From a virus (lineage: Duplodnaviria > Caudoviricetes), in the IMG/VR virus record IMGVR_UViG_3300027898_000001: 64,000 bases of DNA; one strand, given 5' to 3'. The position numbers and the translations under genes were made by a program. Shown one piece after another: positions 16,460 to 53,020 of the stretch (position 1 is the stretch's first letter; every line of letters starts with the position of its first letter). The notes beneath the pieces are model-generated. The model searched no databases and had not been told where the DNA came from. It was given only the letters and a program-made list of their open reading frames with translations.

Positions 16460-17707
16460 CTAAATTGCCATAGGTGTAGGGTTTTCTAACTTGCCTTTAT
16501 TCTTGTAACCAACAAACTTATAGTCGTCCGCAGTAGAGTTTTCTAAATCTTCCAATGTTTTGATGATAGGGTTAATTAAGAAACGTCCTCTGTTTTCTTC
16601 ATGAGGACCGCGTTCGATTTGCTCTCTAGCTGCATCCAAGTGTGTAACATAAATATGCGTATCACCAGTAAGATAAAATAAACTGCCAGGTGCAGTGTTC
16701 GTCACACGTGCCATCTTGTTCAACATCATATCGTAGCTTGCGATATTGAATGGACTTCCCAATACAAAATCGGCACTTCTCTGAAACATGATTAAGTCTA
16801 AACGGTGTCTGGGTACGTTCAAACTGTCCAATACTTCGTGTGTGAAAACGTCCCTTGAGAAAGCAGCTTTTGACACATTTGAATATATCCAATCGCCAAA
16901 TACTGTTAATTCTTTCTGTCTTGAAAGTCTTTCATTTCCATACCATTCTACATCATGTGTAACTCTTGCGTGTAATGCTTGTACGCGCTCGTGTAACATC
17001 AATTCAGTACACAAGTATTGCTGCAATACATGACAAGCAGGTAAAGCTATTTGCTCCAACACTGCTGGATTCCAACCTAAAACTAAAACACGGCGGCTGT
17101 TAGGTGATTTAATGATAGTATCTACAGCGTTCTTCAATTGATCTACTTCACGATACAGTACAAACACCGTAACTTTCTTTGTATCCAATTGCTTTGAATA
17201 CGTACCATCTAGTCGGTACCCCAATTTGATGTAATGTCTAAACATCTTATGTTCTTGTTCTTGTTTTAACTGACGTTCAGTTGTTGCTGATATGGGTCCG
17301 CGATTAACATCATCTGCAATTAATTCTTCACACTCAAACAACACGGTATCTTTCCAGCGACGCCACTGAGCACCATAAATAGGACCTAGATCGTCTGTAC
17401 CTTTACGAAATGTATTACTCAACCAAGCATTTGGATTAACACCATGTTCGTTAGCATTCTCGTACCATACGTTACAACCAGCAGCGCCAAAATCGGCAGC
17501 ACTTGTTTTACCTTGAATGAAACAACGTAGTTCACCAAGAACACTTTTAAGTGGTAATGATTTACTAGATACTGCATTTAAAGTAGTGCCGTAGTTAGTG
17601 TTGTATTCTGTTAGATTAACTACTTTACCTAGTGTATCAACACCAGTTCTGTTTTCGCGCACAGGACACGTAAGTAATTCTTCGACTGTTTTTAAATATG
17701 CTTCCAC
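16460..17707 (-). CDS. thyA: Thymidylate synthase ThyA with two large insertions
   Basis: LGPIYGAQWR, WNP, ALPACH, QRSAD..LG.PFNIASY, GDTHIY; 415 aa. Confidence 0.95.
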   Translation of the reverse strand: MEAYLKTVEELLTCPVRENRTGVDTLGKVVNLTEYNTNYGTTLNAVSSKSLPLKSVLGELRCFIQGKTSAADFGAAGCNVWYENANEHGVNPNAWLSNTFRKGTDDLGPIYGAQWRRWKDTVLFECEELIADDVNRGPISATTERQLKQEQEHKMFRHYIKLGYRLDGTYSKQLDTKKVTVFVLYREVDQLKNAVDTIIKSPNSRRVLVLGWNPAVLEQIALPACHVLQQYLCTELMLHERVQALHARVTHDVEWYGNERLSRQKELTVFGDWIYSNVSKAAFSRDVFTHEVLDSLNVPRHRLDLIMFQRSADFVLGSPFNIASYDMMLNKMARVTNTAPGSLFYLTGDTHIYVTHLDAAREQIERGPHEENRGRFLINPIIKTLEDLENSTADDYKFVGYKNKGKLENPTPMAI

Positions 17708-20759: not shown

Positions 20760-23700
20760 ATGGCAGCAGAACAAATAGTCTTTGAGAAACTACAGCCCAG
20801 CATGTTTGAAAATCAACCTATGTGGTTAGATTTCTTCACAGCATTATCAGAAGTTATTCAAGAACAGATTCGTGAACCTATTGGTGAATTGGAAGACATT
20901 CGACACATCGTAGAAACAACTGATCCATTCATCATTGCTAACACTATTAAGCAATTGGGGTTCGACATTCCAGCAGACTTAATTCAAAGTAACATTGACC
21001 GACTGAGTCGTTCTGTGTACATGTTGAGTTTGTTCCACGAAATTAGCGGTACACACGATTTTAAACGCTCTATTGCGTATGTATTAGGTCGTGATGTTGA
21101 AGTTACCAATCTGTTCACAAATGACTACACCAATTTCTATGCAGAGCCGCAAGGTCCGCTATTACAAGATGGTGGTGATTGGTACGGCACTACACATATT
21201 GATCTTGGTATGGAATTATTACCCGATGATCGTGGTCTGATATTACCAATTGGTAAAACACTTGAAGACCGTTTGCTTGCTGCGTATTTTGAATTTGCAC
21301 CTATAAATCAAGTAGTAAACAAGTTTTATTTTATTACAAACATACAAGCTGAATTAGATATGACTGCTGCGGTGTTTGTGAATCCTGTGCATTACAGAAC
21401 TGTTGGTGATGGTGTACATAACGTATTATCTGTCCGTAGTTTAGCTCCAATCTCTGTAGAATCTGAATCTAGCATACCCCTACAGGCTCAGGCTCTGTTT
21501 TCTCAAGTCCCCTGTTATGATGTTAGTACAATTGCTTACGGTACCGCAGCTTCTGTTAAGACTGATGCAGATATAACGGCACTTACTACTGTGACCCATA
21601 CCGCTACACAAAACATCACGCTATCCATACCTGCAGGTCAGTTTGGTTATATTGCGAGCCCTGTTGAATTAGGTAATCTCACGTTCACCGACTCTAATGG
21701 TTTCTCTGGTGGATGGGATGGTGCTACTTGGGTAGATGGTACTGTTGGTGCAACTACTGGTCCAATTGTAGTTAAGCGTCTGATTGACAGTCAATTCAGA
21801 GATTGGAATTTGTACCGTACAGATTTCCCTGCACTAGGTTCTGTTACATACACTGTTACAGTGCAATACAATCGTAAGAGTTCATGTGACGTTGTTGACA
21901 AGACTGTGATATTACCGCCAGCTCCACCACCTACAGTCTGTACTCCAACTTCTGTACCTATATTTCCTATTTATGGTACAGGTTTAGCAGGATACAATTC
22001 AGGCTCTGTTTTAGACTCATTGCAATACGCATTACCTAGTACATCGAATCAACCTTTTACGTTAAACATTGATAACGGTAAATATGGGTACTTTGCATAT
22101 CCTATAGCACTTGGTATGGCATCATTCACAGATAGTAATGGTCTACAAGGTGGTTGGGATGGTGCGGGATGGCCTACAGATGGAAGTATTGGTACTACTA
22201 CAGGTCCTGTAGCTGTAACACGTACGCTACAAGGTAATACAGTATCCTACTATCTTTATCGCACAGATTTCCCCAGCTTAGGTAGCACTACGTTTAACGT
22301 GACGTTTGAACACGCAGGTACAGCACTTTCAATAACAGTTTCCAATTGCCCAACAAATTGTGTTTCTGGTTATCCTGTTATAGCTCAAGGTAATGAAGGT
22401 CTTATCACAGACGCTGGTATTACAGCAGCTATTGTGCAGACATTGACAACTACCGCGAATACTGCAATCACGACAACTCCTACGGATGCTCAGTTTGCGT
22501 ATTTTGTGTATCCAGTTGAACTTGGTCTTGCCACATTCACTGACTCTAATGGTTTTATTGGGGGTTGGGATGGAGCTACTTGGGCAGTAGGTGATATAGG
22601 TAGCACATACGGACCCAAAACTATAAGTAGAACTGTGAACACAGTAACTTCTAACTGGTATGTGTATCGCACTGACTTTGCAGGCATTGATGCTACGTTT
22701 AATGTGGCGTTTACGTCAGGTAATCTATGTGTAGGTTTAAACATCGTTGTTAATCCCGTATCTTGTGTTGTTTCTTCTGCACCTAGATACGGCACTGGAT
22801 TTGAACTAGCTACAGATACACAATTGAACACCTTAACTGCTATATCTGATATGGCACAACACTCTTTCACTATAAATGTACCCGCTGGACAATACGGTTA
22901 CTTTGCGAGTCCTGCGGCTTTGGGTAAAGTTACATTTACTGATACGAATGGTTTTGTAGGTGGCTGGGACGGAGCACGTTGGCCTGTTGATGTTATAGGT
23001 AGCGATGCCGGACCTTCACTTGTAATGCACACAGTTGGTACGAATGATGTACCATGGTATTTATATCGCACAGATTTCCCTGCTCTAGGTTCTGTTACAT
23101 ACACTGTGTCTTACGAAAACAACTTATCAATAGGTACATTAGGTTCTAATTGTCAAATAAGCATTCCACATGCGTCAGATTTTGTAAAAGGTGTTGCACC
23201 TACTTCACCACATTTTCCTGTTTATGGGCTAGGTGTTATCGGAATTCATAACGATAGTGGTATATTGTCGTTGACTTCGCAATTCGTATCAAACGCGAAT
23301 GCTACGTTCACGATAAATGTAACCTCAGGTCATTACGGTTATTTCGCTACTCCAAGTAATCTAGGTATAGCTGAATTTACAAATACGTCCACTAATCTGC
23401 AAGGTGGATGGGATGGAGCTAGTTGGCCTTCAGATGGTAGTATTGGAATTCAGAATGGTCCTATAGCGGTCTTACGTAACATTGGCGGTATTGTGCAAAC
23501 GTGGTATTTATATCGCACTGATTTTCCTGGTATTGGTAACGCTACTTATAAAGTTTCGTTTGGACATGCCGAGGAAAATACAGGTTACACAGTCATTCGT
23601 TTAATAAGTCCAACGTGGTCAACAGATCGACCAGATCTAGTTACATTTGATTTACTAGGTGTAGCACACTTCAACAAAGTTACTGTAGATACTATTGTCC

Positions 23701-26700
23701 ACGTAACAGCGTCGTATCAGGGTGTTAATGATACAGTTGCGATTACGTTAAAGGCAACAGCACCCGCACTATTACACGCTACGCTGACTGGGCCTGATAC
23801 ACTTGTTGGTGGACAAAGTGGTATATTTGGAATGGACGGTTATTACTCAGATGGTTTCTATCGCCCTGTTGTTGGTGCAATATACTCTGTGTTAAATCCA
23901 TACGCTAGATTTACCAACGAAACACTTTCTTCTGATAATCCACCAGTAGATCAAACACTTTATGTACAAGGTAGTTATACGAATGCTGATGGTAGCGTTG
24001 TACAAGCTACAGGCAATACTCTGCTTACTCATGTGAACACTAACTTATATGTTATGGATATGAGTATTGCAGGTCCTGCTACAATCATTGAAGGTACTAC
24101 CGTTCAATACGTTGCAAATGTATTGTATAGCAATGGTACTTCCAAGCCAGAACTAGTGTTGTGGGAAACTTCAACACCAAGTTTATATATAGATCAGCAA
24201 GGTAATGCTACGGCAAACAGACCGAATAACAATTATAGTGCTACAATTACAGCTACGTTCCAATTCAATGGTGCTAAAACTGTATCTACAAAACCTGTAA
24301 ATGTAACTATAGTAACTGTAACACCTAAATCACTTACAATTGCAGGTCCTGTTAGTGTTTCAGAATTATCCGCAGCGCAGTATCAAGCCAGATTAACTTG
24401 GAGCGATAATAGCACTATCTATGTTGCAGCTAGTTGGAGTACAAGCAAGTTTAGTATAGATAACACAGGTTTGTTATCAACAGGTAGTGTTAGTGCAGAT
24501 ACACCGTTGACCATAAATGCAATTGCTAATGGTCTGTCTGCACAAGCCTCTGTAACTGTACACGTAACGCAAGTTACTTTAGAGCATATAACGATCATTG
24601 GACCAGATAACGTATTAGAAGGTGTTAATGCTACTTACCGATGTTTAGCCCACTACAGCACAGGTAAAGATGTTGAAGTTACGGCTACCATGAGTGTAAC
24701 AGGTAACCCCTCGTTTGTTAGTTTAAGCGCTGGTGTGTTGAGTGTATTTGCACCTACAGCAAGTTCAATAGAATTAGTAGCTAGTTATACTGCTGGCCTG
24801 GTTACCTACACTCAGAAAAAGCTTATTGTAGTTATTCCTAAAATAGCGTTGATAAGTGGATTAACAATAGCAGGACCATCAGAGGTATTAGAATCTAAAC
24901 GAATTTCTCTTTCTGCGACTGCGTTATATACGGATGGTACTACACATATCGTGCAACCACAATGGTCTGTTATGTCACCAGATGTTACTAACGACCCAGA
25001 AGCTGCGGCAGACGTTGTATCTCCTGGTGTTTTACAAGGCAGAATCGTTGATAAAGATACCAAAGTTATTGTAGTTGCTACTTACTTTAAAGAAGTGGCG
25101 TATTATCCTATTGTAGTTAAAGATTACACACCTCCTGGTCCTGATGTGCCTATTACGTATCGCATTGATGGTCCTGATCAGATAACAACATCACAAATAG
25201 GTTCTTACACATTGTTATGTAAGTTTCAAAACTGCCCTAGTGTGTTGTCGCTGTCGAACGATTGGGCACTAGATGTAGATAACACAGTAGCTATCATTGA
25301 TAACAATGGATATTTGCGCAGTATAAATCACCAACCAGCTACAGTGGTAGTTAATGCTACGTGGAGCTATAACGGTCATGCTATTCAAGATAAGAAAACA
25401 GTATTAATTGTAGATGATGTTTTCATAAATCAAATACTATTATCAGGACCTAGCACCGTCGATAAGAATAGTACTGCACAGTTTTCTGTAGAAACATTTA
25501 CTAATAAACAAACACTTGTTCAAGGCCAAGGTGCAGTACCCGGTTCTGGTCAAGTTGTGTGGTCTGTTACTGGCAGTTCTTTAGTTACAATAGATCAGAC
25601 TGGTTTGTTAAAAACTGGTGATTTGCAATCGAATGTTACAGTTACAATAAGTGCGGTGTTCAATGATGGTCACCATTCTGCAATCACTGCAACATCTAGT
25701 GTGCTTGTACATGGTGCACCGCCCGCAATCGTATCTGCCAATTTGTTGGGTAGTTTGTCCACACTTGAAGGTGGTGTTTTGCAATTCAGTGTTGAAGTGT
25801 TTCGAGCTGGAATGACTACATTACCAGGAACAGGCTTACCAGTTAATCCGAGTACATTGGTGTTTGCTGTTACATCAGGCAGCATTGATAGTACAGGTAA
25901 GTACACAACACCTAGCAACCTGACAGCCGACGCTACAAGCACGTTGACCATAACTGGTGTTTATGAAAACTATAGTATCAGTATTTCTAAAACAATTACG
26001 GTACAACACAAAGTAGCCATAGCTGCCTTGTTTACAGGACCTTCATCTATTGCAACAGGTGGAACTGGTACGTATTCCGTTGAAGTGTTTTACACAGGCG
26101 AAACTGTAATTGCAGGTCATGGTCGCGTTAACCCCCCTGAAGCTGTGTTTAGTCTTGTCAGTGCACCAAGTGCAATTACATTAGCTAATAGAGTTGTTAC
26201 AGTACCTAGCACGTTCACCTCAGGTGCTTCTTATACTATGCAAGTTGTTGTAGGTACTGTAACTAAAACTATTGCAGTCACCACAACCGCGGTTATGGCG
26301 TTTCAAAAAATAAATGCCCGCGCACTTAGTTTACCTGCAGCTTATAACTTTGGAGTCCAGTCAGGAACAGGATTTAACTATGCTAATGGTTTTACTATAT
26401 ACGATGCAAATAATGTTTTAATTGCTGGGTGTACATCAACAAATCAACAAGCTCCCCTTGTACTTAACCCTAATTTATATTCAGGCACAGGGCTAACGAC
26501 CTATCCTTTGCATATATCTGGAGCAACTGGAGCATCAACCGCAGGAGGAGCTATTAACTATAATGGTTCAGCTGGGAATTTTATTTTATTCTTAAATAAC
26601 TCTAAATTGTACTATACATATTTTGATGGAAGTGCTTGGTTACCTACAACTTATATAGACTTATCATCTTTAGTCTCTCTTACTGCGGGTTACGCGTATA

Positions 26701-27548
26701 GTATACAAAGTTACATTCGACCTTATTACAAGAAAGTTTCTGATGGTACTGAATTTATTTTTATTCAAGTAACGTTGGAGTATGTTAAAACAGGACTGCC
26801 TGTTTTACCGTACTACGGTCTTCGAGTATATAAAATAGTTGGAAATTCACTACAATTTGTTCAAGAAATTTCTTTGCCTACTGATGGTGTTTCTGGAACA
26901 ATAAGCCGTATTTTTGTATTTGATGCGGCTTATTCAAATTTTCCTAATGACATAATGGATTTTTGTTGTAGGTTGCAGTTATCTACTGGCGCATCTTTAT
27001 ATAATAGAGTATCGTATATATATGATGGTTCGTCTTTTACTGAAAGTCTGCCTACGTATAAACCTAACACTTTAGGTTTTTATGGTTGTATGTACTACAG
27101 TATAAATTCTCAAATATATTGCATTTCACAAATGTGTAGCGTTATAACAAATAACACACAGACGCCGGGTCAAATGATATTAAGTTCTGTAGATTCTACA
27201 ACAGGTGAATTGAAAACAGTACAGACTATTGGAACAGCAACACCAGTATCAGGTAATGTTGGCACACAAACACCAGCAGTATCCTATGATAACAAGTATT
27301 GCGCAATACTTGTTAGTTCGACGGCGTCACACATTAGTAGTTATATATCACTGTACTCCATTTCACAAAGTACGGGTCAGTTAACATTTATGCGATACAT
27401 AACATACGCAGATATGGGGCTTCCTGCTATTTCAGGTTCTAGTGTGAATGAAATAAAATTTATGCCAGATAACAAAACACTCGTGTTGAAAATAGATATA
27501 GCACCTACTGCAACTTCAGGAGGCTTTTTCTATATAATCAGTGGCTAA
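20760..27548 (+). CDS. Giant baseplate/fibre protein, 2262 aa: wedge (gp7/P2 I-like) N-terminus, five GGWDGA repeats, Ig-like repeats, C-terminal beta-propeller-like tip
   Basis: The N-terminus follows the gp6 homologue. Repeats I.GP..V......Y.A...YS.G resemble Big_2/Ig-like domains. The last ~400 aa differ in composition. Confidence 0.8.
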   Translation: MAAEQIVFEKLQPSMFENQPMWLDFFTALSEVIQEQIREPIGELEDIRHIVETTDPFIIANTIKQLGFDIPADLIQSNIDRLSRSVYMLSLFHEISGTHDFKRSIAYVLGRDVEVTNLFTNDYTNFYAEPQGPLLQDGGDWYGTTHIDLGMELLPDDRGLILPIGKTLEDRLLAAYFEFAPINQVVNKFYFITNIQAELDMTAAVFVNPVHYRTVGDGVHNVLSVRSLAPISVESESSIPLQAQALFSQVPCYDVSTIAYGTAASVKTDADITALTTVTHTATQNITLSIPAGQFGYIASPVELGNLTFTDSNGFSGGWDGATWVDGTVGATTGPIVVKRLIDSQFRDWNLYRTDFPALGSVTYTVTVQYNRKSSCDVVDKTVILPPAPPPTVCTPTSVPIFPIYGTGLAGYNSGSVLDSLQYALPSTSNQPFTLNIDNGKYGYFAYPIALGMASFTDSNGLQGGWDGAGWPTDGSIGTTTGPVAVTRTLQGNTVSYYLYRTDFPSLGSTTFNVTFEHAGTALSITVSNCPTNCVSGYPVIAQGNEGLITDAGITAAIVQTLTTTANTAITTTPTDAQFAYFVYPVELGLATFTDSNGFIGGWDGATWAVGDIGSTYGPKTISRTVNTVTSNWYVYRTDFAGIDATFNVAFTSGNLCVGLNIVVNPVSCVVSSAPRYGTGFELATDTQLNTLTAISDMAQHSFTINVPAGQYGYFASPAALGKVTFTDTNGFVGGWDGARWPVDVIGSDAGPSLVMHTVGTNDVPWYLYRTDFPALGSVTYTVSYENNLSIGTLGSNCQISIPHASDFVKGVAPTSPHFPVYGLGVIGIHNDSGILSLTSQFVSNANATFTINVTSGHYGYFATPSNLGIAEFTNTSTNLQGGWDGASWPSDGSIGIQNGPIAVLRNIGGIVQTWYLYRTDFPGIGNATYKVSFGHAEENTGYTVIRLISPTWSTDRPDLVTFDLLGVAHFNKVTVDTIVHVTASYQGVNDTVAITLKATAPALLHATLTGPDTLVGGQSGIFGMDGYYSDGFYRPVVGAIYSVLNPYARFTNETLSSDNPPVDQTLYVQGSYTNADGSVVQATGNTLLTHVNTNLYVMDMSIAGPATIIEGTTVQYVANVLYSNGTSKPELVLWETSTPSLYIDQQGNATANRPNNNYSATITATFQFNGAKTVSTKPVNVTIVTVTPKSLTIAGPVSVSELSAAQYQARLTWSDNSTIYVAASWSTSKFSIDNTGLLSTGSVSADTPLTINAIANGLSAQASVTVHVTQVTLEHITIIGPDNVLEGVNATYRCLAHYSTGKDVEVTATMSVTGNPSFVSLSAGVLSVFAPTASSIELVASYTAGLVTYTQKKLIVVIPKIALISGLTIAGPSEVLESKRISLSATALYTDGTTHIVQPQWSVMSPDVTNDPEAAADVVSPGVLQGRIVDKDTKVIVVATYFKEVAYYPIVVKDYTPPGPDVPITYRIDGPDQITTSQIGSYTLLCKFQNCPSVLSLSNDWALDVDNTVAIIDNNGYLRSINHQPATVVVNATWSYNGHAIQDKKTVLIVDDVFINQILLSGPSTVDKNSTAQFSVETFTNKQTLVQGQGAVPGSGQVVWSVTGSSLVTIDQTGLLKTGDLQSNVTVTISAVFNDGHHSAITATSSVLVHGAPPAIVSANLLGSLSTLEGGVLQFSVEVFRAGMTTLPGTGLPVNPSTLVFAVTSGSIDSTGKYTTPSNLTADATSTLTITGVYENYSISISKTITVQHKVAIAALFTGPSSIATGGTGTYSVEVFYTGETVIAGHGRVNPPEAVFSLVSAPSAITLANRVVTVPSTFTSGASYTMQVVVGTVTKTIAVTTTAVMAFQKINARALSLPAAYNFGVQSGTGFNYANGFTIYDANNVLIAGCTSTNQQAPLVLNPNLYSGTGLTTYPLHISGATGASTAGGAINYNGSAGNFILFLNNSKLYYTYFDGSAWLPTTYIDLSSLVSLTAGYAYSIQSYIRPYYKKVSDGTEFIFIQVTLEYVKTGLPVLPYYGLRVYKIVGNSLQFVQEISLPTDGVSGTISRIFVFDAAYSNFPNDIMDFCCRLQLSTGASLYNRVSYIYDGSSFTESLPTYKPNTLGFYGCMYYSINSQIYCISQMCSVITNNTQTPGQMILSSVDSTTGELKTVQTIGTATPVSGNVGTQTPAVSYDNKYCAILVSSTASHISSYISLYSISQSTGQLTFMRYITYADMGLPAISGSSVNEIKFMPDNKTLVLKIDIAPTATSGGFFYIISG
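21520..23580 (+). repeat. Five tandem ~135-148-aa GGWDGA/YRTDF domains
   Basis: GGWDG cores at about 21708, 22149, 22560, 22959 and 23403. Confidence 0.85.
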
Positions 27549-47709: not shown

Positions 47710-47842
47710 CGGATTTGATTACCTCATCTGTCAATACTTCACCTTCGACCATAACTGTTTTTAGGTCTTCTCGTAATTCTGCCTCTAATTCTTCACGATT
47801 TAACATAAATTGTATCAGCTTCACGTTATTGGAACACACCAT
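47669..47842 (-). CDS. Small acidic hypothetical protein (~57 aa, or 45 aa from ATG 47806)
   Basis: MLNREELEAELREDLKTVMVEGEVLTDEVIKSAKVV...; below the ORF-track cutoff. Confidence 0.45.
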   Translation of the reverse strand: MVCSNNVKLIQFMLNREELEAELREDLKTVMVEGEVLTDEVIKSAKVVCNASNQYYY

Positions 47843-47925
47843 TTAGGGGCGGTTTTAATGCTACTCCACAGGTGTGGAACCATGTTGTCCTACGGTGTTA
47901 TTTAACATTCTCTACTTGTATTACA

Positions 47926-48723
47926 TCAACTTTCATTATGCACATCCTGATAACTTACAATGAACTTCGCTTTGCGTAACCAGTGATCGGCTAAGCATCG
48001 CATACAAGTGTGAGCAGATCGCGTACAATCACCATCGTGTTCAGCTTCCATCCAAACCATAAAATTAGGAACGCTAACACTACCTATATTATCACCGTCT
48101 TCGTGTGGCTCATCAATCTCATAACTGGCGAGAGCTAATGCAAGTTTTAAGATACGATTATCTTTAGCATCACGATTATCGAGTTGAGACCGTTTAATAG
48201 GATTTTCTTCAGGTTCAAATGGTACTACTATTGGATGACCATTAAAACTTTCAGATTCAGTTATTTTAGGTGTATGTTCTTCGTCAATAATACCTACAGA
48301 AATAAATGTAGTATCACGATCTACGATAACTCTATTTGCTGTTCCTAAATGCGATAGTTTTATTGTAGATACTGTTGACTCAGATACAATAGTAGCACTT
48401 GTGATTGTCGCAATATTTTGTAAAGCACCTTTTCTTAACTCACCGAATCCTGGTGCTTTACACGCAACTACTCTTATGTAACCACGTATCTTATTCACTA
48501 CTAGCGTAGATAACGCCTTGCCTATAATATCCTCAGCAATAATAATCAGTGGACGTTTTGAATTAATAACTTCCGTTAGTATAGGAAGAAAGGGTTCTAT
48601 TTCGTTGAGTTCTCCATCAACTAATAAAACATACGCATTTTCAAACACTACGTTCAATTCAGAATCGTTGTTAATAAAGTAAGGTGATAAGTAACCTTGA
48701 TCGAAACGTGTCTCGTCTATCAT
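47926..48723 (-). CDS. GroEL apical-domain protein fused to a C-terminal His/Cys motif
   Basis: RFDQGYLSPYFIN...PL.IIAED..G.AL.TLVVN..RG......KAPGFG..RK..L..IA..T...LG.A.RV....DTT; no equatorial ATPase domain; HDGDC....HTC.RC tail. Confidence 0.9.
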   Translation of the reverse strand: MIDETRFDQGYLSPYFINNDSELNVVFENAYVLLVDGELNEIEPFLPILTEVINSKRPLIIIAEDIIGKALSTLVVNKIRGYIRVVACKAPGFGELRKGALQNIATITSATIVSESTVSTIKLSHLGTANRVIVDRDTTFISVGIIDEEHTPKITESESFNGHPIVVPFEPEENPIKRSQLDNRDAKDNRILKLALALASYEIDEPHEDGDNIGSVSVPNFMVWMEAEHDGDCTRSAHTCMRCLADHWLRKAKFIVSYQDVHNES

Positions 48724-49535
48724 TGCCGTATCTCGTATTTATCAAGAATATGTTTAACAAGAGGTTTATTACTTGGTGTGCGAGTCAGACAATCAAAATC
48801 TATATCAACATCTGTTTTGCATTTCACCAACTTGTAGGACAGTCGCAAGTTATCTAATTGCTCTGATAACCTTTTACCTGTCGCACCCTTAATGTTGTCT
48901 ATATTAGCAACAATATTTTTCAGAGTACCATACTCTTTAATGAGCTTTAGTGCAATTACATCACCAACGCCGTACACACCAGGAATATGGTCAGTCTTAT
49001 CACCTTTCATTGCAAGAAAGTATGTTACTTGTTTTGGTGTTAAGCCTTTCTCTTCCAATAATGATTTCAACGTAGTACGTTTCTGTGCCTTAGTATCAAG
49101 CAAATCTACATACTTGGAAATAAACTGTGCGCAGTCTTTATCGCCAGTTAGAATTGTAAGCTGCATTTCATTTTCAGTGTAGTGCTTTGCAATAGTACCA
49201 AGAACATCGTCGGCTTCAACACCTTTTATATTCAACACTGGAAGTCCAAACGCGCGACATAGTTTGCGGATAATAGGTTTCTGTACCTTTAGGTCGTCTG
49301 GACACGGTTTGCGATGCAGTTTGTAATCGGCATATAAATCGTAACGGAAGTTTCTACTCTCATGGTCAAATGTCACGATTATGTTTTGCTGTTCACGTAA
49401 CAAAGGTTTTATCATGTGATAGAAGAATGTGATAACGCCAGTTGGTTCACCCTTTCTAGTAGTCAATTGGGCTTTGAAACTAGCGTAGTATGCACGGTAC
49501 AAATAGTAGTTACCATCTAGTACTAGAGTGCGCAT
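48720..49535 (-). CDS. 5'-3' exonuclease / flap endonuclease (Pol I N-terminal, T4 RNase H-like)
   Basis: VLDGN..LYR.Y, FD....FR...Y..YK..R, EADD..GT, GDKD, GD..D.IPGV.G.G. Confidence 0.95.
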   Translation of the reverse strand: MRTLVLDGNYYLYRAYYASFKAQLTTRKGEPTGVITFFYHMIKPLLREQQNIIVTFDHESRNFRYDLYADYKLHRKPCPDDLKVQKPIIRKLCRAFGLPVLNIKGVEADDVLGTIAKHYTENEMQLTILTGDKDCAQFISKYVDLLDTKAQKRTTLKSLLEEKGLTPKQVTYFLAMKGDKTDHIPGVYGVGDVIALKLIKEYGTLKNIVANIDNIKGATGKRLSEQLDNLRLSYKLVKCKTDVDIDFDCLTRTPSNKPLVKHILDKYEIRQ

Positions 49536-50035
49536 TATTTGACAACCGTTAATGTTGGTTTAGCTGGGAAGTGAGAGTTCTCGAAAAACTCTTTAGATTC
49601 TTTCTTGTTATATTTGGACGCAAGTGGATTAGGAATAATGTATATGGGTTCGCTTGGAGATCCAAAGTTATACTCAAAGTAGAATGCTTTATCCTCAGAG
49701 GGTGCAGAATCACCGGTGCTAACGCCAATAATATTCTCTAATGGCAATACACAGCGGAAAGGAACACCGTTAAATGTTGTGTTGAATGCAATAACAGCGT
49801 TCTCATAATCTATATTGTAGTTCGTCATGGAACGTGTCGCAGCACGTAGCGTTACTTTTTTACGATCTTGTAGGGATTTTGGTAATGATAGTTCGACTGG
49901 AGATAATAGGAGTATTTGGGCGCGCGAGAAACTAGGCTTTCTTGACAATTGTATATGTGGGTCGTAACCCATCATAGACAACATGTTGATGTGGTTTTGT
50001 ACTACTTCGATATTGGTGCAGAACTGTTTTAACAT
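49535..50035 (-). CDS. sspB: SspB-like ClpXP adaptor, copy 1
   Basis: F...FNG.P....+PL..I+.+ core and C-terminal KPTLTVVK (E. coli XB tail RPALRVVK). Confidence 0.75.
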   Translation of the reverse strand: MLKQFCTNIEVVQNHINMLSMMGYDPHIQLSRKPSFSRAQILLLSPVELSLPKSLQDRKKVTLRAATRSMTNYNIDYENAVIAFNTTFNGVPFRCVLPLENIIGVSTGDSAPSEDKAFYFEYNFGSPSEPIYIIPNPLASKYNKKESKEFFENSHFPAKPTLTVVK

Positions 50036-52259: not shown

Positions 52260-52613
52260 CTACACTGTTACAGCAACATCGTTATAACGAACATACTCAG
52301 CCAAAGTGAGAGGTAACTTGGCTTCAATTGCGGCATGATCGAATAAGGTTGCATCGTAACCTGAAGCGGACATAGCGTTCCAATCAATCGAGCTATCATC
52401 GAATGGTAAGAATGTAACAGTATTAGAACCAGTTGTGACTGTTGTACTATTGATAGTTGTTGAATTAATAAACATGCGTTCAAACTCGCGCGCTAACTCT
52501 AGTGAGGCATCCTCAGAAACACAAACTATTGCTGTTTTTGAATGTTTACTTGAGGACTTGAACGCGCTTGTCAACATATTCAATGTACGGCTGCTTCCTT
52601 TTAGTGCTGTCAT
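52260..52613 (-). CDS. Hypothetical protein
   Basis: 117 aa, coupled to sspB copy 2. Confidence 0.7.
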   Translation of the reverse strand: MTALKGSSRTLNMLTSAFKSSSKHSKTAIVCVSEDASLELAREFERMFINSTTINSTTVTTGSNTVTFLPFDDSSIDWNAMSASGYDATLFDHAAIEAKLPLTLAEYVRYNDVAVTV

Positions 52614-53020
52614 TTTACTACTCTCAATTTAGGTTTTTGTTTACTGAAAACTCGCATCATTTTAAAGTCCTTAGGATCGAATTCAAATATAATCTCATCA
52701 CCGCTTGATTTAAGCATAGGGATATATTCAACAGGTACTTTAAACTCCGCATTGTCTTCTACGCGGTTAAATGACAAAACACCGCTTTCATAACACATAC
52801 GCATGTTACGTACTGTAACATCCCACAACGGTACTGTTATGTACTCCTCATCAGCATAATCATTTGGTAATACTAATTCTGCGTTTGGAAGTGGGGATGT
52901 TGCATTAGTCCTATCTAAATATGGTTGTTTAGATACCACTAAGACTGGCACCAGATGCAAATCTATAATGCAGTCATAATAGCTACATAGTGTGTATGCA
53001 GTAATACAGGAAAAGATCAT
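52610..53020 (-). CDS. sspB: SspB-like ClpXP adaptor, copy 2
   Basis: Y.L.SYYD.IID..L.P.L+V...+.+......VRN+....E...+SF core; C-terminal KPKLRVVK. Confidence 0.7.
   Translation of the reverse strand: MIFSCITAYTLCSYYDCIIDLHLVPVLVVSKQPYLDRTNATSPLPNAELVLPNDYADEEYITVPLWDVTVRNMRMCYESGVLSFNRVEDNAEFKVPVEYIPMLKSSGDEIIFEFDPKDFKMMRVFSKQKPKLRVVK

Follow-up and report, generated by a model that had tools for sequence, protein, structure and literature searches.

The apical domain of GroEL is known in isolation as a laboratory construct. Engineered minichaperones comprise residues 191 to 376 of the E. coli protein or truncations of this segment (PDB entries 1kid, 1jon, and 1dk7). Refolding of rhodanese and cyclophilin by the isolated apical domain and by its C-terminally truncated forms needs no ATP; the truncated forms are the more active, and peptides and GroES share one binding place on the domain (PMC2695268). 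The chaperonins that have been described from phages, among them gp146 of Pseudomonas phage EL, those of phages AR9 and OBP, and the virioplankton GroELs, are full-length proteins (PMC7185714, PMC9598537, PMC5649160), as the first-pass annotation of the present locus had also held when it called them full-length rings. The GroELs of Vibrio phage K471 and Flavobacterium phage immuto, two phage proteins that matched our apical-domain query, likewise proved on inspection to be full-length, with a GroES gene beside the immuto GroEL gene. Because a survey of virioplankton chaperonins discarded sequences missing key regions, apical-only forms would have gone unreported in it. In the literature that we searched, natural minichaperones had not been described from phages.

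Here we describe a phage gene that encodes a GroEL apical domain and a second, unrelated domain. The window, that is, the whole stretch of DNA that was analyzed, is 64 kb long and belongs to a phage of roughly 260 kb (longest contig on record, 260,268 bases). The apical-domain gene occupies positions 47926 to 48723 on the minus strand, begins with ATG, contains no internal stop codon, and encodes 265 amino acids (29.6 kDa) arranged as an apical domain, a linker, and a C-terminal three-helix domain. It forms a coupled trio with two upstream genes, and the features of the locus are as follows.

49535 to 50035, minus strand: SspB-like ClpX adaptor homologue, 166 amino acids, C terminus LTVVK; first gene of the coupled trio
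48720 to 49535, minus strand: 5'-3' (flap) exonuclease, 271 amino acids (PF02739, E = 5e-47; PF01367, E = 2e-24)
48720 to 48723, minus strand: ATGA overlap between the start of the apical-domain gene and the stop of the exonuclease gene (translational coupling)
48280 to 48723, minus strand: GroEL apical domain, residues 1 to 148, about 190 to 338 of E. coli GroEL, by homology and residue mapping
within 48280 to 48723, minus strand: loop YLSPYF and helices H and I of the apical part
48169 to 48279, minus strand: linker, residues 149 to 185, by composition (GroEL homology ends at about residue 148 and the family match of the C-terminal domain starts at about residues 186 to 190)
47929 to 48168, minus strand: C-terminal three-helix His/Cys3 domain, residues 186 to 265, by family homology and AF2 model
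47926 to 47928, minus strand: stop codon of the apical-domain gene

The ATGA overlap and the uninterrupted 265-codon reading frame bear out the earlier description of the gene as intact, with its own start coupled to the exonuclease. The product of the first gene of the trio matched PF04386 with an E value of 0.03 and the NCBIfam model of the ClpXP specificity-enhancing factor with an E value of 5e-4, under the cut-off, and it matched a PF04386-annotated gene lying upstream of the exonuclease gene of a related uncultured phage (L015) with an E value of 7e-18. A second, more diverged SspB-like copy with the C terminus LRVVK is encoded at positions 52610 to 53020 on the minus strand. The apical-domain gene closes the minus-strand block and is followed, about 290 bases on, by convergent plus-strand genes that include an M15-type endolysin. 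Searches of the locus, and of the sequence that follows the gene, revealed no terminator-like site, inverted repeat, or Rfam match. The GC content of the gene (36.6%, against 39.2% for the 64-kb window) is phage-like. Elsewhere in the window, a minus-strand gene at positions 16460 to 17707 encodes a 414-amino-acid thymidylate synthase homologue, in which a 335-position profile match spans residues 2 to 409 and suggests a large insertion, and a plus-strand reading frame of 2,262 amino acids (positions 20760 to 27548) lies directly behind a baseplate wedge homologue.

Residues 1 to 148 of the phage protein matched apical-domain constructs in the PDB with E values of 4.4e-40 (3osx) and about 1e-37 (1jon, 1kid, and 1dk7), and full GroEL chains aligned to the same residues at positions 190 to 338. 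Among family profiles, the match covered positions 190 to 343 of 540 in PHROG 5725 ("chaperonin groEL"), positions 189 to 332 of 526 in NCBIfam TIGR02348 (152.7 bits, with the whole-protein cut-off of 582.1 not reached), and positions 189 to 338 in six standard NCBIfam GroEL models (128 to 160 bits, against whole-protein cut-offs of 352 to 1,041 bits); PF00118 scored 26.8 bits, below its cut-off of 34.3. The equatorial ATPase and intermediate domains are absent, and the region preceding Met1 is the exonuclease gene, so that the reading of the protein as a GroEL apical domain only, made in the first-pass annotation, was upheld. By these sequence matches, the phage protein is not a GroEL by membership, since it misses the whole-protein cut-offs and has neither the ATPase nor the ring domains. 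Because the ring-forming equatorial domain is absent, a GroEL-type heptameric ring is not expected. When the 64-kb window was queried by tblastn with cellular GroELs (full-length and partial), a pair of phage GroELs, and a pair of GroES sequences, only the apical segment was detected and no other GroEL piece or GroES, which agrees with the earlier statement that neither a GroES gene nor a ring domain lies nearby and gives no sign, within the window, of the remaining groEL parts as an adjacent pseudogene.

The boundaries of the apical domain were compared with those of the PDB constructs. Residues 6 to 144 of the phage protein correspond to positions 4 to 145 of the 146-residue 1dk7, and residues 6 to 148 correspond to positions 4 to 149 of 1jon. 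The minimal active apical core (about 191 to 336) is spanned, 1dk7 is covered end to end, and the match stops there, leaving GroEL helices K and L (about 339 to 376) without a counterpart. Since these helices are missing, the boundaries fit the C-terminally truncated minichaperones (1dk7 and 1jon, 146 to 155 residues) and not the 191-376 construct. The boundaries of about 191 to 376 proposed earlier were thus right as to the domain and its start near position 190, but the homology ends near E. coli position 338. In the place of helices K and L stands the linker of 37 residues, which contains 8 Asp or Glu, 4 Lys or Arg, and 5 Pro residues (GRAVY, -1.25) and has no family match. An alignment made with MAFFT hinted at a remnant of helix L in residues 178 to 189; this candidate was dropped, as the stretch also looks like an N-terminal extension seen in two proteins (P0123 and P0125) of the family to which the C-terminal domain belongs. 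A single-sequence AF2 model of the whole protein had a pLDDT of 32.

To map individual residues, the protein was aligned with 117 cellular GroEL fragments and with the Salmonella GroEL, from which the E. coli numbering was taken. All eight classical polypeptide- and GroES-binding residues are identical in the phage protein, namely Y199, Y203, F204, L234, L237, L259, V263, and V264 (Y11, Y15, F16, L46, L49, L71, V75, and V76 in phage numbering), and N265 and R268 are likewise kept. GroEL has 68 columns with a conservation of 90% or more; the phage protein keeps 48 of them, and the 20 that changed include G192E, M193T, K226E, E238T, E257K, R284L, D291N, G337I, and a deleted G306. We take changed positions such as G192, M193, K226, E238, E257, and R284 to include residues of the intermediate-domain hinge and of inter-subunit salt bridges, and the pattern of changed and retained positions would match a loss of ring constraints with binding kept. 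The retention of the binding residues (8 of 8, versus 71% at the other conserved positions) is a marginal excess (hypergeometric p of about 0.05).

The divergence of the domain is considerable. The phage protein ends a long branch of the maximum-likelihood tree, 2.39 changes per site where the median terminal branch has 0.2, and the donor lineage of the domain was not resolved by this tree. The mean identity to cellular apical domains was 46%, compared with 68% for cellular domains among phyla, and the best cellular GroEL was at most 51% identical. Because exposed hydrophobic residues would otherwise not be expected to survive such divergence, binding has probably been under selection. On this view, constraints tied to the ring appear to have lapsed, and what selection appears to have preserved is the fold together with the exposed hydrophobic groove.

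Like the engineered minichaperones, the phage protein consists of the apical domain with the same groove residues and nearly the same boundaries (190 to 338), and it has neither an ATPase nor a ring. In contrast to them, it is natural and phage-encoded, has an identity of only about 46% to the apical domains of cellular GroELs, has presumed hinge and salt-bridge residues replaced, and carries in addition a linker and a second domain that was modeled as a dimer. Refolding by minichaperones has been reported without ATP (PMC2695268), and the phage protein, a GroEL derivative, would work in the same manner if it works at all. With the full-length phage chaperonins it shares its standing as a phage-borne descendant of group I chaperonins on a long branch; unlike those proteins, which are ATP-driven rings of about 520 to 560 amino acids per chain and are in some cases encoded beside GroES, it comprises the apical core only.

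The C-terminal part was used as an HMMER query (residues 145 to 265) against 1.84 billion representative proteins in an exhaustive search with E values up to 1e-3. It matched 63 other proteins, of which 62 were credible after removal of P0129, a 960-amino-acid protein matched in eight stretches that was rejected as a repeat-protein false positive. The family (P0121 to P0183) consists of small uncharacterized phage proteins, nearly all of 70 to 140 amino acids, which matched over residues of about 190 to 257 with E values from 8e-11 to 1e-3. Its members share the motifs YExDEP(H/Y) and H-x-G-D-C-x6-C-x-R-C (H-x3-C-x6-C-x2-C); in the family alignment, the His and two Cys residues are invariant, and the third Cys and the Y, D, P, G, D, and R residues are nearly so. 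Residues 186 to 262 of the phage protein form a regular member of this family, with 29 to 43% identity and every motif residue present (YEIDEPH at residues 201 to 207; Y201, D204, P206, H229, G231, D232, C233, C240, R242, and C243). The putative zinc ligands are H229 (positions 48037 to 48039), C233 (48025 to 48027), C240 (48004 to 48006), and C243 (47995 to 47997), and we infer that the domain binds zinc. The first-pass annotation had seen an acidic linker running into a putative metal-binding tail; the Cys/His stretch is real, but it belongs to a conserved three-helix domain and not to a loose tail.

An AF2 model built with a 61-sequence alignment gave a compact three-helix fold (pLDDT, 93.5; pTM, 0.82) with helices at residues 184 to 203, 218 to 226, and 241 to 262. 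Modeled in two copies with zinc, the domain reached a score of 0.51, versus 0.25 for the best control, with a contact agreement of at least 75% and a partner pLDDT of at least 70 across runs. Among proteins of solved structure, 20 of the 30 that are pairs of one chain attained this mark, as did 1 of the 23 that are single chains. The modeled interface is symmetric and sets the first helices against the last (residues of about 193 to 201, 207 to 215, and 250 to 263), and the model supports a homodimer of the C-terminal domain.

Searches of Pfam, PHROGs, NCBIfam, and PDB sequences gave no match to the C-terminal domain. Foldseek searches with its model gave best E values of 4 in the PDB and 1.2 in the AFDB clusters and no convincing relative in BFVD, and feature and structure look-alikes in the ESM Atlas all remained under meaningful scores. 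VIA-align comparison with 48,161 chains gave a best Z score of 5.0, which is inside the chance range for helical models; RbcX (Z score, 4.9), lambda GamS, and the SIFV coat protein were considered as fold relatives and rejected as being within chance for such models. The one notable row among the fold matches was an uncharacterized Orpheovirus protein (TM score, 0.64; E = 0.017). By tblastn, neither the C-terminal domain nor the family member P0131 matched anything in 50,697 phage records. Family members on longer contigs lie among small reading frames in phage-like DNA: one adjoins a Mu-type portal gene (L006), one is found within an integrase-bearing element (L008), and one belongs to a replication module that also encodes Pol III alpha, RNase T, and SSB (L009). 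No neighbor gene is shared among the stand-alone loci. Four members (P0127, P0130, P0133, and P0151) carry small Cys-rich or coiled-coil extensions, and none of the 62 credible representatives contains a chaperonin domain. In relation to this family, the phage protein has the same motifs and the same predicted fold; the other members stand alone or carry other small extensions.

The earlier suggestion to look for the same domain architecture elsewhere was followed in two large protein libraries, and the fusion of an apical domain to a His/Cys3 domain proved unique to this protein in both, and thus to one phage lineage. In the collection of 5.8 billion protein clusters, the sole full-length match was the protein itself, and everything else that matched was cellular GroEL in fragmentary or chimeric form. 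By blastn, the locus matched none of the 50,697 phage records. Scans of IMG/VR for the C-terminal part yielded no close relatives, and the same held for the exonuclease and for the SspB-like protein. Hits labeled "Listeria phage," with 92% query coverage, were rejected as instances of the same architecture, being Listeria chromosomal groEL at a contig end. The records concerned (OR848302.1, which is L001, and OR847602.1, filed as Listeria phages LM 4-14-1 and 4-11-1) are bacterial chromosomal DNA with an ordinary groEL, and two further misleading "phage" hits (AFYI01000007.1 and AGRM01000005.1) are Salmonella whole-genome shotgun contigs of bacterial chromosome, again with an ordinary groEL. 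Two metagenome GroEL fragments with internally duplicated apical segments (P0002 and P0003), which are probably assembly chimeras, outrank true GroELs in apical-domain queries.

The phage itself is an uncultured freshwater giant phage and a distant relative of the PaBG, Lu11, NCTB, and Erwinia Y3-like jumbo phages, with about 33 to 45% identity in a 774-amino-acid virion protein. The exonuclease has relatives at 51 to 61% identity, those of the uncultured phages compared here being 51 to 59% identical. Of the four such phages that were inspected, three have an SspB-like gene upstream of the flap exonuclease gene, directly upstream in L015 (966 to 1424) and 1 to 1.6 kb upstream in L013 (3463 to 3930) and L014 (2926 to 3393); no SspB-like gene is annotated upstream of the L012 exonuclease. 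Neither an apical domain nor a His/Cys3 domain was found within 5 kb of the exonuclease of these relatives. The slot downstream of the exonuclease is filled by a mostly unrelated gene in each phage (L012, 5824 to 6333; L013, 5830 to 6540; L014, 5855 to 6220; L016, 1122 to 1418), the L012 and L013 genes having only a 25-residue stretch in common. Because the relatives carry unrelated genes at this place, the slot is a variable accessory slot and the apical-domain gene is lineage specific, and because they keep the pair of SspB-like and exonuclease genes without this gene, it is not an obligatory partner of the pair.

We tentatively favor, at slightly less than an even chance, the explanation that the gene encodes an ATP-independent and probably two-headed client-binding protein. 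In such a protein, the apical groove between helices H and I would bind exposed hydrophobic segments of nonnative proteins or peptides resembling the GroES loop, and this binding would need no ATP. It speaks against this reading that a single apical domain binds clients weakly. The C-terminal domain, by binding zinc and dimerizing, would yield a two-headed binder with an avidity above that of the single domain, and tethering of this binder to a partner may be a further role of the domain. The protein would be made together with the SspB-like ClpX adaptor and the flap exonuclease, and its most likely role during infection would be that of a holdase or a client-capturing factor for phage or host proteins. 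Hsp33 is a redox-regulated, ATP-independent holdase in which a C-terminal Cys-rich zinc module also governs dimerization. It offers an analogy only, as a client binder with a Cys-rich zinc-type module, and no sequence or fold similarity to it was found; a redox switch of the kind seen in Hsp33 would be pure speculation.

Two other explanations would deny the protein any function of its own. That a bacterial groEL read cluster was misjoined into the phage contig is extremely improbable. In the probable source run, the Logan contigs break at positions 48579 to 48608, within the apical-domain gene, and at 48866 to 48895, within the exonuclease gene. These breaks are branch points of the assembly graph and may come from words shared with other DNA in the sample, and chimeric GroEL fragments such as P0002 and P0003 do occur in metagenome assemblies. 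Against a misjoin, the three source-run contigs that carry the locus have 30-base overlaps with one another and agree with the window in every letter. Identical pieces were also present in a second freshwater metagenome from another study and another year, in which a 592-base contig spans the junction of the exonuclease and apical-domain genes (48652 to 49243) and two further contigs cover the zinc motif and the stop codon at the 3' end (47808 to 48084). This second DNA run showed no sequence variants, and no RNA run with the sequence was listed among public runs. The phage-like GC content and the low identity to any cellular GroEL likewise speak against a bacterial insert. Since contigs of two independent metagenomes run from the exonuclease straight into the apical domain, the gene is not the product of an assembly break, which the first-pass annotation had named as an outcome that would undo its reading. 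It is improbable, though less remotely so, that a captured groEL fragment was accidentally fused to a small phage gene and has no selected activity. A singleton architecture, a variable slot where a transcription block ends, and a very long branch would all suit such a remnant, but the frame has stayed open across its 265 codons through about 2.4 changes per site, the core and all eight binding residues are kept, and a remnant would hardly be expected to show clean domain boundaries and a start coupled to the exonuclease gene.

The remaining alternatives grant the groove its binding activity and differ in what it would serve. Because the groove is common to clients and GroES, a holdase, a GroES decoy, and an adaptor all fit it alike. 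A targeting adaptor, in which the His/Cys3 domain docks on a specific partner while the apical domain grips hydrophobic or unfolded segments, overlaps with the favored reading and is unlikely but with an appreciable chance of being right. The partner might be replication or early machinery or the ClpXP pathway served by the SspB-like adaptor, which would suit the occurrence of stand-alone family members in phage early and replication modules, the coupling of the gene to the SspB-like adaptor and the flap exonuclease, and the modular nature of the family domain with its other fusions (P0127, P0130, P0133, and P0151); the family, however, has no conserved neighbor, and the related phages do without the gene while keeping the adaptor and exonuclease pair. 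Rather unlikely is a GroES decoy or modulator of the host chaperonin, whose groove would bind the GroES mobile loop so that the dimer titrates or redirects the co-chaperonin and changes the clients of GroEL. The kept residues, L234, L237, V263, and V264 among others, do contact the GroES mobile loop (PMC2695268), and residues tied to ring allostery are lost. According to textbook knowledge, however, phages usually need the host GroEL and GroES for morphogenesis, so that sequestering GroES seems self-harming; one or two mobile loops would bind weakly in comparison with the sevenfold GroEL-GroES contact, and no GroES-like gene was found in the 64-kb window. A broader proposal, to which we give a distinctly small chance, is that the two-headed copy of the GroEL surface and the SspB-like ClpX adaptor belong to a phage system for redirecting protein quality control in the host. 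The protein would then take hold of GroEL clients or GroES and either pass them to the host protease or protect them from it, and the zinc domain would be the docking and dimerizing module of an ATP-free decoy or adaptor.

If the favored explanation of a two-headed, ATP-independent client binder holds, the laboratory minichaperone would have a counterpart in nature in the phage protein, an apical-only form not reported from phages in the literature that we found. Both the apical protein and the zinc-type family are small and soluble-looking. As a by-product, the analysis uncovered an unnamed family of small phage proteins of predicted zinc type, with a confident fold and no recognizable structural relative. 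Were the fusion protein naturally selected, the client-binding surface of GroEL would be useful on its own in vivo, especially as the groove was kept through heavy divergence and a putatively dimerizing partner domain was gained. This would mean that phages need not take over a complete chaperonin and can borrow a single part of it.
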